DNA of 64,000 bases, taken from NCBI RefSeq assembly GCF_013315695.1, contig NZ_CP054353.1, one strand, 5' to 3'. This stretch comes from Escherichia coli (lineage in GTDB: Bacteria; Pseudomonadota; Gammaproteobacteria; Enterobacterales; Enterobacteriaceae). Under the pieces are notes generated by a model. It was not told the origin of the DNA. It saw nothing but the letters and a program-made list of their open reading frames with translations, and did not search any database. The position numbers and the translations under genes are program-made. Positions 12,131 to 46,475 of the stretch are shown piece after piece. Every line of letters begins with the position of its first letter. Position 1 is the stretch's first letter.

Positions 12131-12552
12131 CCTCGCGCATACAGCCGGGCAGTGACGTCATCGTCTGCGCGGAAATGGACGAACAGTGGGGCTATGTCGG
12201 GGCTAAATCGCGCCAGCGCTGGCTGTTTTACGCGTATGACAGGCTCCGGAAGACGGTTGTTGCGCACGTATTCGGTGAACGCACTATGGCGACGCTGGGG
12301 CGTCTTATGAGCCTGCTGTCACCCTTTGACGTGGTGATATGGATGACGGATGGCTGGCCGCTGTATGAATCCCGCCTGAAGGGAAAGCTGCACGTAATCA
12401 GCAAGCGATATACGCAGCGAATTGAGCGGCATAACCTGAATCTGAGGCAGCACCTGGCACGGCTGGGACGGAAGTCGCTGTCGTTCTCAAAATCGGTGGA
12501 GCTGCATGACAAAGTCATCGGGCATTATCTGAACATAAAACACTATCAATAA
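12049..12552 (+). CDS. insB: IS1 InsB'
   Basis: 167-aa ORF in the -1 frame relative to insA, identical to copy 1. Confidence 0.9.
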
Positions 12553-30800: not shown

Positions 30801-31021
30801 GCGGTAACGGCAGAGGTCATGACATCCGGGCTCGCACCTGGGTAGAGGGTAACCACCTGAATGGTCGGATAGTCCACTTCCGGCAGCGCCGAAACGGGCA
30901 GGGCTCGATAACCGATAATCCCGGCGAGTAAGATCGCCACCATCAGCAGCGTGGTGGCGACAGGACGCATAATAAACAGGCGCGACGGGCCGCCTGTGCT
31001 GCTCGGGGGTAACACCTGCAT
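27899..31021 (-). CDS. mdtB: RND multidrug efflux pump subunit MdtB
   Basis: 1040-aa RND permease paralogous to MdtC; overlaps mdtA stop by 1 nt. Confidence 0.9.
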
Positions 31022-38967: not shown

Positions 38968-41900
38968 TCAGTTAATCGCGAAATAACTGCTATTCACCAG
39001 CAAATCCAGCGGTTGGGCATCGGCAATCACATCGCCATAAATCAGATCGACGCCGATGCCCGAAAGCGTATCCATCACTAAGGGTAAAACGACTGGCCCG
39101 GCGATGGTTTTCATCCCGAGTCGCTGAGCATGCCCCTGAATAATCGTAATCAGCATCTCATCCATCAAATTACCCTGCACGCTGGCGCATAACTCACCAT
39201 CAAGTAGCAGGTAATCTGCCATATTTGCTTTCAGCGAGTTGAAGATTTGCAGATCGCGGCCCACCTGACTGAATACGATCCGACATCCCGCCAGCCGCAG
39301 TTTTTGCACGCTTGCTGCGTGATCTAAAATCGCGTCTGCCGGAATAATCAGATGTAATAACCGTGGTGGTAGAGGGCTATTTTCCAGCTGCTCAATTAGT
39401 TCATTCACCAGCGTGGCGCTACTCAAACCGGCAACGGAAAGGGGGAGGGCGATGCTTAAGCCTTTACTGGCAATCGCTTTTGCGGCCTGCTGGAAAAAAT
39501 CGTGGAATACCCGTCGGTCAAGAGCATGGCTAAGTGCCGGATCGCTGAAGCTACGACGAAATGTTTGTTCATCAATAATCTCGCCTTCGCAACTCCAGAG
39601 CTTAAGTGAAATCAGCCACAAATTACGCGCTTGCGGGATCCGCGGCGAAGCGACACCGTGGGCGATCATCATCAACTGATTCTCTTTAATCATCCGCCTC
39701 TGTTCATCAAGCGATATCGCCGCCCGTTCGCTATGTGCGGCAGCTTGCTGCGGTTCGTAAACCGTCACCCGGCCCCGTCCACCATTTTTGGAGGCATAAC
39801 AGGCGATATCAGCCTGCGACATCACTTCAGCCGCCTGATGATTGTTGTCATCAATCAAGGTAATCCCGGCACTGGCACCTACCCGATGTACACGTCCTTC
39901 CCAGATAAAGTGATAGTCATTCACGGCGCTGATAATGCGTGTAGCGATAAAACGCGCACTTTCGACATTACAATCTGGCAGCAGCAGACCAAATTCATCG
40001 CCACCGAGTCGCGCCAGCACGTCGCTGGAGCGCAGCATACTCAGCATCAACGACGCCAGTTCGCGCAGTAAAGCGTCGCCCGCCGCATGCCCGGCGCTGT
40101 CATTCACCGCTTTAAAGCGATCAAGATCGATAAACACCAGGGCATGTCGCTGATGCGTACTGTTTACCGTTTGCAGCAGGATGCGTAGTTGCTTCTCAAA
40201 ACTGGCGCGATTGGCGAGATGCGTCAGTGCATCATGGGAGGCGCTGTAGCTCAGCTGGCGCAGCATTTTGCGTGATTCGGTGACGTCCTGAATCACCAGA
40301 ACCGAGCCTATATTGCTGCCGTCCAGAGTACTTAACGGCGTAATACTGTAATGCACGTCGTAGCTGCCGCCGCTTCGGCAGTGCAACACCACATCTTGTT
40401 CAATCGCGGAACGTGAGGTGTCGGCACTGTAAATGTTCTCCATTAATGGTCCGTTGTCGCCAAAAGTAATATGCAACACCGTCAGGAGCGGAACACCTAA
40501 CGCTTCTTCCTGCGTCCAGCCGCTCATCTTCTCCTTCTCCGCCACCGGATTCATAAAGGTAATTTTCATTGCCATATCAATACAGACCACGGCTTCGCCG
40601 ATGGAATCCAGCGTTATGTGCAGGCGCTCTTTTTCCTGAAACAATGCCTCGTTAAGCTGTTTCACTTCGGTCATATCCATATTAATGCCGAGCAGGCGTT
40701 CGACTTCGCCTTCTTTATTCAGTACCCGGTTAGCGAGGGCGCGGATATGGCGAATGCCGTCTTTCACGGTAATGCGAAATTCCAGTTTAAAGGGCGAGCG
40801 TGATTGCAACGAATCACGAATCACGAATCACTTTTTCGGCGTGTTGGCGATCTTCCGGCAGCACGCACTCGTACCACACCTGCCAGTTCGGTTTGATATG
40901 CGGAGGAATTTCATACAGCTCGAACATCCGCTTATCCCAGCTAAAAATATTCGGCTTCAGCTCCCACTCCCAGATGCCAATCCCGCCCGCTTCGTTAGCC
41001 AGCGTGATGCGCTCCATCAGTTGCTGATTCACCTGTTCGGTGCGTTTTAGCTCGTTAATGTCTTCAATCTGAGCGATAAAATAGAGCGGCGTGCCATCCG
41101 TGTGGCGCACCAGTGAGACGGCAAGCAACGCCCAGACAACATCGCCATTGCGGTTGTAGTAGCGTTTTTCCATTGAATAGGTGTTTATTTCACCGCTGAT
41201 CAGCTTTTCAACCTGTTGGAGATCTTTATTGAGATCCTCCGGCCAGGTCAGTTGCTGAAAGGTGAGTCCGCGCAGCTCTTCCTGACTGTAACCGAGAAAC
41301 TGGCAGAGTGCTTTGTTGGATTGCAGCCATTGCCCCTCGGTGCCCACTAATGCCATGCCGATGGCGGAATATTCCATGGCGTTACGAAAACGGGTTTCGC
41401 TTTCGGAAATGTGTTTGCGTTCCGCACGAAAGGCATACATCACCATGGTCATGATGTTGGCGGGCAGCAGGATCAGCAAAAACGGTAGCCACGGCATATG
41501 GCTCATCAGGTATGTACGCGGCGTAGCAAGCAGGGAGGGATCAGCGGCCATCATCAGTGACACCATCATCACCGTGGTAAGGAAGATCAAAAAGGCTTCC
41601 ATTCGTGGCAGGCGCACGGCGCTCCACATCAACAGCACAATAATGAAAGTAAAAGGCCACGGCAGATACAGCATCGAAAGCCAGCTTAACGTCAGTGTGA
41701 TGGCTAACGTGAGCAGCGACTCAAAAAGCAACCGTGGGTTGCGATGGCGCAGCAGATAGTGTGGTTTAAATAACAATCCCAGCGGCACCAGTGCCAGTGC
41801 GCCGATGGATTCTGACAGTACCCATATCAAAAATGCCCTGAGAGGATCGTCTCCGGGCGTCAGCAGGATAACCAGAACACCCCCTAACAGAGGTGGAACA

Positions 41901-42298
41901 ATGGCGCTGCCGAGTGCTAGACGCAGCCAGTCAGCCAGATTTTGCAATGGGTTATACCACGGCAGCAATTTACGCAGTAGCACTGCCCCGACCACGGCTT
42001 CAACAATATTGATGGTCGTCCAGGTCATGTTCAGCGAGCTGGTGGAAAAAAGCAGGATGGATGCGGCGATATTTCCCAGCGAGCAGCTCAGCGCAATCCC
42101 CGGCCACATGCGCCCGGCATGGCGATAAAACGCCACCATCATGATGGACGTCGGGAACCACAGTGGGGCGAGTTGGGTGCCAAACTGCGAAAGCTCAAGT
42201 GAGAAAAGGGTGAAGATAAACGAGACTAAACCTAAACTGACCAGGTGAAGCAGCGGGTGGGGCAGGGCAATTAATACATGCTGTGATTGTTTGCTCAT
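38968..42298 (-). pseudogene. dgcE: Diguanylate cyclase DgcE (MASE1-PAS-GGDEF-EAL), frameshifted by a 7-bp tandem duplication
   Basis: Two ORFs (40814..42298 membrane MASE1 plus PAS; 38968..40824 PAS-GGDEF-EAL) in different frames overlapping at three tandem copies of GAATCAC (40811..40831); deleting one copy gives a continuous ORF of about 1105 aa. Confidence 0.8.
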
Positions 42299-45857: not shown

Positions 45858-46148
45858 CTAAGCAGCATGTGGATATTGAATTTCAATACGTTGAATATGC
45901 AATCCTGCATGAGCCATCATGGTGATCAATTTATCGATACTAAAGATCTGGATCTTACCTCTGGCAAGTTCAGATATGCGAGGTTGAGTGACCCCTAAAG
46001 CAGACGCTGCCTGAGCCTGGCTAAACCCTTGTTGTTCAATCCAGTTATTAATGATCGTTACAAGTTCGGCACGGATCCGCATATTTTCCGCTTGTTCAGG
46101 GGTGTCACTCACCGCATCCCACACACTATCAAAGGTTTCAATTTTCAT
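45858..46148 (-). CDS. HigA-like antitoxin (XRE-family HTH)
   Basis: HTH QAQAASALGVTQPRISELARGK; immediately downstream of and overlapping a RelE/ParE-superfamily toxin-like ORF, the HigB-HigA gene order. Start codon uncertain (46148 or 46166). Confidence 0.65.
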   Translation of the reverse strand: MKIETFDSVWDAVSDTPEQAENMRIRAELVTIINNWIEQQGFSQAQAASALGVTQPRISELARGKIQIFSIDKLITMMAHAGLHIQRIEIQYPHAA

Positions 46149-46475
46149 TTTTCCGCTCCTGAACAAGTTCTTTATAGCGTCGTTTGTCTAAATCAATATC
46201 CGATTGACTGGTAGTCTGTGTTTTCTTTTGAAAACAATGCAATACGTAAACCGCTTCTTCAAATTTTGCGATATACATGACGCGATAGATCCCATCAGCA
46301 TCGCGAGTACGAATCTCTCGCACACCAGGGCCGATAGTTGAAAAGGTTTCCAGTCGTATGGGTTTAACCCTTGTTGGATCCTGTCGAGTTGATAGCCAAT
46401 TTCCTGTCGAGACGATTCTGGAAATGCGCGTAAATCGTCAAGACTGGTATCAAGAAAAGCCAGCTTTTTTCTCAT
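46138..46475 (-). pseudogene. HigB-like toxin (RelE/ParE superfamily), split by a frameshift
   Basis: N-terminal part (46188..46475) and C-terminal part (46138..46323) are in different frames; adding one T/A in the A4 run at 46341..46344 gives a continuous toxin of about 112 aa. Confidence 0.6.

Follow-up and report, generated by a model that had tools for sequence, protein, structure and literature searches.

Slipped-strand mispairing at simple sequence repeats (SSRs) underlies phase variation at contingency loci, for instance in surface genes of Haemophilus, Neisseria and Campylobacter, where the repeat tracts are long; phase variation of this kind is not known to be typical of Escherichia coli. 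Within E. coli, the (CTGG)3 repeat of the lacI gene was reportedly recognized as a spontaneous frameshift hotspot by Farabaugh, Schmeissner, Hofer and Miller in 1978. The subject of the present analysis is a tandemly repeated heptamer in the diguanylate cyclase gene dgcE (yegE), located in a stretch of E. coli DNA of 64,000 nucleotides (contig NZ_CP054353.1 of assembly GCF_013315695.1), the whole of which is hereinafter referred to as the window. The window carries an additional, frameshifting copy of the heptamer, and comparison with other genomes of the species makes it highly probable that the site is a slippage hotspot yielding repeated heritable knock-outs, the change in this clone being a gain from two to three copies, and not a switch that reverses at high frequency.

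The dgcE heptamer shares with the lacI repeat the gain or loss of one unit of a short tandem repeat within a gene by slippage, with recurrent identical alleles, changes in both directions and reversion possible in principle; it differs in its unit (7 nt, two copies in the wild type) and in the nature of the evidence, which is homoplasy in natural populations and not measured mutation spectra. As in SSR contingency loci, the dgcE repeat, whose unit length is no multiple of 3, lies in an open reading frame (ORF), and a change in copy number turns the full-length product on or off; in contrast to them, its tract is far shorter (2–3 units), its states are clonally fixed, and no revertants were found among the relatives compared.

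More is known of the gene itself. Deletion of MASE1, deletion of the PAS region or replacement of GGDEF by GGAAF in DgcE was each equivalent to a dgcE null mutation with respect to CsgD, curli and cellulose (Pfiffer et al. 2019, PMC6510439). The natural frameshift 1456delC (H486fs, stop at 490) of soil-persistent E. coli was shown to eliminate CsgD and curli, and the curli-negative strains were complemented by wild-type dgcE (Somorin et al. 2018, PMC6029578). Nucleotide 1456 of the gene corresponds to window position ~40843, 12 nt upstream of the array, and the frame opened by 1456delC terminates within the first GTGATTC unit, at a TGA. Both lesions are natural truncations at nearly the same residue (stop codon 490 there versus 495 here), whereas 1456delC is a single-base deletion and not a change in the number of repeat units, and comes from another lineage and habitat. 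It should be noted that this short stretch of dgcE has yielded truncations at residues 490–506 through three different lesions. Pseudogenization of dgcE in pathogenic E. coli and Shigella is a recognized pattern; in host-adapted lineages of S. flexneri and pathogenic E. coli, as here, the frame encoding GGDEF is intact behind a premature stop, with the difference that the S. flexneri lesion is an insertion sequence with a stop at residue 366, for which residual synthesis of cyclic di-GMP (c-di-GMP) was demonstrated (Ojha et al. 2024, PMC11327459). In addition, yegE was described as "probably two genes" in Shiga toxin-producing E. coli O156:H25, a split yegE being present in O182:H25 as well (Geue et al. 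2017, PMC5359238).

The allele of the window is in itself an ordinary, already annotated, inherited frameshift pseudogene. What is new is the species-wide picture, drawn from genome comparison, of a 14-bp hotspot in the PAS2 domain with repeated and independent gains and losses. Literature searches on dgcE/yegE frameshift, pseudogene, O26 and curli, whose coverage did not extend to the survey of Povolotsky and Hengge (2016), yielded no published description of the heptamer as a recurrent hotspot.

The heptamer array and the split dgcE reading frame

The dgcE pseudogene, flanked by alkA and udk, occupies positions 38968–42298 on the minus strand (3331 nt); in its intact form the gene measures 3318 nt and encodes 1105 aa. 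The assignment to dgcE, proposed in the initial annotation from the sequence alone, holds, since the gene has the alkA–udk chromosomal position and near-identity to annotated dgcE, is named dgcE in RefSeq and differs from that of strain MS 21-1 by 0 single-nucleotide polymorphisms (SNPs). Three GAATCAC units occupy positions 40811–40831 of the plus strand (three GTGATTC units on the gene strand), and the 7-nt periodicity extends over 40809–40831, a 23-nt array that can be written as three ACGAATC units followed by AC. The wild type has two copies and the window three, the extra unit constituting the frameshift; the unit of 7 nt, lying within an ORF, is not divisible by 3, and the wild-type heptamer pair encodes V-I-R-D-S of PAS2. 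GAATCAC ×3 was the sole perfect tandem repeat with at least three copies and a unit of 5–10 nt in the window, whereas the chance expectation for such repeats was on average 0.07 per window, with 6 of 100 mononucleotide shuffles containing any.

The repeat and the two minus-strand ORFs overlapping in different frames, as initially reported, were read again from the sequence. The N-terminal ORF (40814–42298, minus strand, 494 aa) encodes MASE1, PAS1 and the first half of PAS2, ends in ...HAEKVIRDS* and is closed by a TGA formed within the third heptamer, after codon 494. The C-terminal open frame (38968–40824, minus strand, 618 aa) encodes the second half of PAS2, PAS3, GGDEF and a degenerate EAL and begins VIRDSLQSRSPFKLEF; its start is a mechanically assigned GTG, its translation is predicted only, and it is called as a separate gene by gene callers. 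No Shine–Dalgarno sequence was recognizable upstream of this GTG when read from the sequence. The two ORFs share 11 nt inside the array in different frames, so that the window lacks the single uninterrupted frame of a functional dgcE, and RefSeq flags a frameshifted pseudogene.

Pfam matches located the break precisely. In the N-terminal ORF, MASE1 (residues 19–294) and PAS1 (303–419) were followed by a PAS_3 match broken off after 43 positions, while the C-terminal ORF contained positions 43–89 of PAS_3, then PAS3, GGDEF (E = 9e-46) and EAL (E = 3e-19). The PAS_3 model has 89 positions, and the split at position 43 divides PAS2 in the middle. Together, the matches of both halves sum to MASE1, three PAS domains, GGDEF and a degenerate EAL, the same architecture as described for DgcE by Pfiffer et al. 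(2019, PMC6510439), and agree with the initial view that the N-terminal MASE1/PAS half is separated from GGDEF-EAL. In each of the six frameshifted alleles examined, that of O26:H11 among them, the C-terminal frame was fully open.

According to the proposed mechanism, replication slippage of the Streisinger type, with slipped-strand mispairing between the two direct units, would have added one 7-bp GTGATTC unit. The added unit shifts the frame, and the TGA in the third unit ends translation after codon 494. Full-length DgcE can therefore not be made, and the MASE1/PAS part is severed from the GGDEF-EAL output. A 7-nt inverted repeat is also present (40799–40825), in which CGTGATT (40799–40805) is complementary to AATCACG at 40812–40818 and 40819–40825; in the wild-type locus the motif occurs twice in direct and once in inverted orientation, the inverted copy lying 6 nt from the array. 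This inverted copy could stabilize misaligned intermediates and is a possible contributor only. No support was obtained for a DNA hairpin causing the hotspot, since the folding energy of the predicted structure (7-bp stem, 6-nt loop) was indistinguishable from that of shuffled sequence (z from −0.8 to −1.5).

Long-read-only assemblies can miscall short tandem repeats, and the initial annotation had itself allowed for an assembly error. The window was, however, 100% identical over 24.9 kb to two independently sequenced RefSeq chromosomes from different countries, AF3 (blood culture isolate, UK) and MSB1_4I (rectal swab isolate, Australia), both with three copies and both annotated as "dgcE diguanylate cyclase, frameshifted". 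The exact 494-aa product (P0002) occurred on 809 public contigs (1250 collection blocks), its sources including the Illumina-era Broad Institute draft genomes KTE69 and KTE143 and an ENA metagenome scaffold, and the exact 618-aa product with a Glu-Lys marker (P0016, see below) was found on 728 contigs. A three-copy allele of serotype O111:H8 likewise agreed between the DEC8B draft and the complete genome of strain 8B. It is extremely improbable that the third heptamer is a sequencing or assembly artefact absent from the organism; as far as genome comparison goes, these matches show the frameshift to be genuine and stably transmitted within a single phylogroup-B2-like clone found in blood and gut on two continents.

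Gains and losses of the heptamer across E. coli

The census was carried out by blastn (word size 11) and covered 5,413 complete E. coli genomes carrying the locus; an earlier megablast pass (81-nt query, 28-nt word) had missed approximately 1,500 genomes, and the counts rest on the word-11 search. Two copies represent the normal state: about 5,300 of the 5,413 genomes showed, on alignment, the 7-nt gap that a two-copy allele should leave, and the two-copy dgcE alleles that were read or seen annotated were always uninterrupted, encoding 1105 or 1107 aa in one ORF. Three copies were found in four genomes, namely, AF3, MSB1_4I, O111:H8 strain 8B (= DEC8B) and the dog strain D10. One copy, sought with a synthetic one-copy query, was found in 109 genomes, most of them apparently of the O26:H11 lineage of enterohaemorrhagic E. 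coli (EHEC), including reference strain 11368, and also in a small-genome group with O176:H45 MIN9. A synthetic four-copy query found the four-copy state in none of the complete genomes (0/5,413). Aligning the window with dgcE of other E. coli, as the initial annotation had proposed, gave two copies in the intact relatives; intact reference alleles had two copies and never three, which disposes of the possibility that three copies might be compatible with an intact frame.

The four variant alleles inspected outside the clone (strain 8B, D10, O26 RM10386 and MIN9) were all annotated as "frameshifted"; RM10386 (L008) and MIN9 (L009) carry the one-copy allele. The truncated product of the one-copy (−7 bp) O26 type was 506 aa long and present on at least 1000 public contigs, and its C-terminal frame was open. 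The variant alleles occurred in dgcE backgrounds 50–110 SNPs apart or set apart by the Glu-Lys marker. For example, dgcE of the one-copy O176 type differed by 52 SNPs from three-copy D10, by 61 from three-copy O111 and by 80 from one-copy O26. The three-copy contig L011, which has no Glu-Lys duplication, was separated by 3 SNPs from two-copy ATCC 11775 and by 4 SNPs from the window. Consequently, copy number was discordant with the dgcE genealogy (homoplasy). Since the backgrounds do not form one family, as the SNP distances and L011 indicate, the heptamer unit has, by this count, been gained independently at least four times and lost at least twice in unrelated E. coli lineages. Each change amounts to exactly one unit (from two to three in the window; from two to one in O26 and O176:H45) and recurs independently, and these repeated gains and losses mark the site as a recurrent slippage hotspot.

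In approximately 2% of the complete E. coli genomes (113/5,413), dgcE is disrupted at precisely these 14 bp. The affected set includes a B2 clone that has been sampled widely as well as the O26:H11 EHEC lineage, and the product of DgcE, c-di-GMP, is a biofilm-inducing signal. The heptamer site thus provides a concrete case of mutation bias steering parallel gene loss.

Programmed frameshifting or recoding was rejected, since the two-frame layout is not conserved: about 5,300 of the 5,413 genomes have two copies, with a single frame wherever it was read. In O157:H7 Sakai (NC_002695.2), yegE is annotated as a pseudogene despite two heptamers, and a different lesion must therefore be responsible there.

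Order of events in the clone and reversibility

The closest intact relatives of the window, MS 21-1 and ATCC 11775, had two heptamers and an intact dgcE of 1105 aa, and intact two-copy relatives differed from the window by 0–1 SNPs within the gene. MS 21-1 and AF14 were each 99.9% identical to the window across 24.9 kb, with 0 SNPs in dgcE. Between the window and MS 21-1, dgcE differed in two indels only, namely, the heptamer (2→3), which agrees with the initial reading of the lesion as the gain of a frameshifting 7-bp unit, and CTTCTC (1→2). The latter is an in-frame 6-bp tandem duplication at positions 40528–40539, present in one copy in the wild type, which inserts Glu-Lys in PAS3 (VAEKMSGW → VAEKEKMSGW). 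It was clone-specific, being found in 2 of 5,391 complete genomes, the same two that carry the window allele. The initial annotation had stated that the removal of one heptamer unit restores a single ORF of about 1105 aa; the ORF is indeed restored, whereas its length in this strain is 1107 aa because the CTTCTC duplication, which had gone unseen, adds Glu-Lys.

A further tandem repeat of dgcE, CTCCCA ×2 (positions 40961–40972), encodes the WEWE motif of PAS2 approximately 140 bp from the heptamers. In the sister lineage AF14/OZ546911 this repeat was present in three copies (WEWEWE; positions 12443–12460 of L007), and dgcE was intact at 1107 aa. The CTCCCA ×3 allele was found in 2 of the 5,413 complete genomes and on 116 contigs, corresponding to a single expansion. 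Thus, within 450 bp, each of three sister lineages with 0 SNPs in dgcE bears a different small tandem duplication. A general proneness of dgcE to tandem duplication was rejected: CTCCCA ×3 represents a single event, the CTTCTC duplication is clone-specific, and only the heptamer site recurs.

A hypothetical repaired allele, with the Glu-Lys duplication and two heptamers, was built and looked up by exact sequence. An allele of this type exists (P0019), is intact at 1107 aa and was found on 20 contigs (56 collection blocks). Two loci carrying it, L012 and L013, have the derived bases of the lineage and showed, over 23.3 kb, no difference from the window other than the heptamer count and position 30851 (and, in L012, two 1-bp gaps). 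At position 30851, within mdtB, L012 and L013 keep the ancestral G, which MS 21-1 and AF14 share, in place of the A of the window; this is the sole substitution between the frameshifted genomes and the intact two-copy predecessors across 23 kb. A third locus, L014, compared over 13.4 kb, differed only in the heptamer count, position 30851 lying outside its reach. Given the ancestral G, L012 and L013 are read as branching below the frameshifted genomes, that is, as predecessors and not as revertants. Since the two-copy Glu-Lys allele is basal, the sequence of events is shown by these comparisons to have been the in-frame 6-bp duplication first and the frameshift after it. SNP 30851 can be used as a linked marker to date or order the frameshift.

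The initial annotation had suggested that the repeat might act as a phase-variable on/off switch of c-di-GMP signalling, in which the tract would flip between two and three copies (or to one) often enough to toggle DgcE-dependent signalling. The mutability of the site was borne out by the at least four gains and two losses; the reversible switch was not, given the short tract, the fixed clones and the typeable two-copy relatives, which read as predecessors and not as revertants. Features compatible with a switch are the unit length, which is not a multiple of 3, the recurrence of gains and losses at the exact site across the species, the greater slippage homology offered by three copies than by the wild type, and the undecayed C-terminal frame, which would permit perfect restoration. 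On the other hand, SSR contingency loci typically have at least five units, whereas the dgcE tract has two in the wild type, three here and never four; known slippage-based phase variation generally involves much longer tracts. Four-copy genomes are missing, though a change from three to four should be about as easy as one from three to two. The clone's 618-aa product was found on 728 contigs and the intact Glu-Lys allele on 20, the two complete genomes belonging to the clone carry three copies each, both typeable two-copy relatives have the ancestral base at SNP 30851, and the one-copy state in 109 complete genomes is mostly confined to the O26:H11 lineage. No copy-number polymorphism within the clone was seen in the accessible data, which comprised both complete genomes, with three copies, and three representative two-copy loci. 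Each variant is, to judge from the distribution of its product, clonally fixed (728 contigs for this clone and at least 1000 for the O26-type product). The short tract, the lack of four-copy alleles and the clonal fixation therefore disfavour a phase-variable switch, which is considered very unlikely.

Probable effect on DgcE and a possible role of selection

The demonstrated need for MASE1, PAS and GGDEF, together with the curli-negative phenotype of a frameshift 12 nt upstream, suggests that the DgcE input to CsgD is lost. The clone has probably been deprived, by analogy with these mutants, of the DgcE → PdeR/DgcM/MlrA → CsgD trigger for curli and cellulose. The heptamer copy number may serve as a simple genotype marker predicting altered biofilm and matrix behaviour.

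Alternatively, the gene may be split without being dead: the C-terminal half would re-initiate at the overlapping GTG or at an internal start and act as a putative soluble, MASE1-independent cyclase, with a rewired c-di-GMP output. The second unit supplies a GTG 8 nt upstream of the N-terminal ORF's stop, the frames overlapping by 11 nt, although this GTG has no recognizable Shine–Dalgarno sequence and PAS2 is cut in mid-domain. The C-terminal frame is intact in six of the six frameshifted alleles examined, O26:H11 included; an open frame is, however, expected anyway for a very recent event, with 0 SNPs in dgcE relative to intact relatives. Experimental data from related alleles also point in both directions. 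In S. flexneri, dgcE with a stop before GGDEF raises c-di-GMP and its deletion lowers it (PMC11327459), and DgcE without MASE1 is expressed and dimerizes better than the full-length protein (PMC6510439), whereas the chromosomally encoded MASE1-less DgcE is null for CsgD and matrix production (PMC6510439) and the frameshift 12 nt upstream is curli-negative (PMC6029578). Residual activity of a separate C-terminal half is therefore regarded as unlikely in this clone.

Several points nevertheless weigh against interpreting the frameshifted alleles as simple heritable knock-outs. The open 618-aa frame kept on 728 contigs fits a very young pseudogene, but judged from sequence it fits a retained function too. 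The interrupted dgcE of S. flexneri still contributes c-di-GMP (Ojha et al. 2024, PMC11327459), and by analogy the null status of DgcE may hold for the CsgD pathway alone. Furthermore, a rare 3→2 reversion is possible in principle, the comparison having covered three representative two-copy relatives, one of which (L014) does not extend to the diagnostic SNP. Isogenic alleles with one, two and three copies would constitute a ready system for studies of adaptive loss and of the activity of truncated diguanylate cyclases.

The frameshifted sublineage was sampled approximately 20–35 times more often than its intact predecessor (728 versus 20 contigs and 1250 versus 56 blocks), a ratio for which sampling bias could account. 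This excess would be expected if loss of DgcE were pathoadaptive, that is, advantageous in the host owing to less curli and cellulose or more motility, and had driven the expansion of the sublineage, the hotspot having merely supplied the mutation. Such a role of selection is also consistent with the three separate tandem duplications in dgcE of three sister lineages with 0 SNPs there, with the independent dgcE inactivations reported in EHEC, enteropathogenic E. coli, enteroaggregative E. coli, Shigella and soil strains, and with the contrast between the in-frame CTCCCA ×2 repeat, which changed once in 5,413 genomes, and the frameshifting heptamer, for which at least six events were counted. 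Meanwhile, clinical clones are sampled with a strong bias, a single linked SNP is not enough to distinguish hitch-hiking from selection, and a dispensable gene containing a hotspot would equally be expected to be lost recurrently. Selection for the loss of DgcE in the host is therefore a possible but rather doubtful explanation of the expansion.

A combined interpretation may also be considered, in which (GTGATTC)2 with its inverted copy would be a preferred and potentially reversible route of DgcE shut-off, repeatedly used under selection in host-associated pathogen lineages, and rare 3→2 or 1→2 restoration would re-arm curli and cellulose. If true, this would be a low-frequency contingency-like locus in a species that is not known for SSR phase variation. 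Such a selected route is quite unlikely, and equally little confidence attaches to its use by the host-associated lineages that could be named for it, namely, the O26:H11 EHEC, the B2 bloodstream and gut clone and O111:H8 DEC8B.

Outside dgcE, a gene encoding a RelE/ParE-family toxin (window positions 46138–46475, minus strand) had a 1-bp deletion near position 46340 relative to MS 21-1 and AF14, giving ORFs of 95 and 61 aa. The gene is annotated as "frameshifted" in AF3, and the neighbouring gene encoding a helix-turn-helix antitoxin is intact. The same 1-bp deletion was present in the two-copy predecessors L012–L014.

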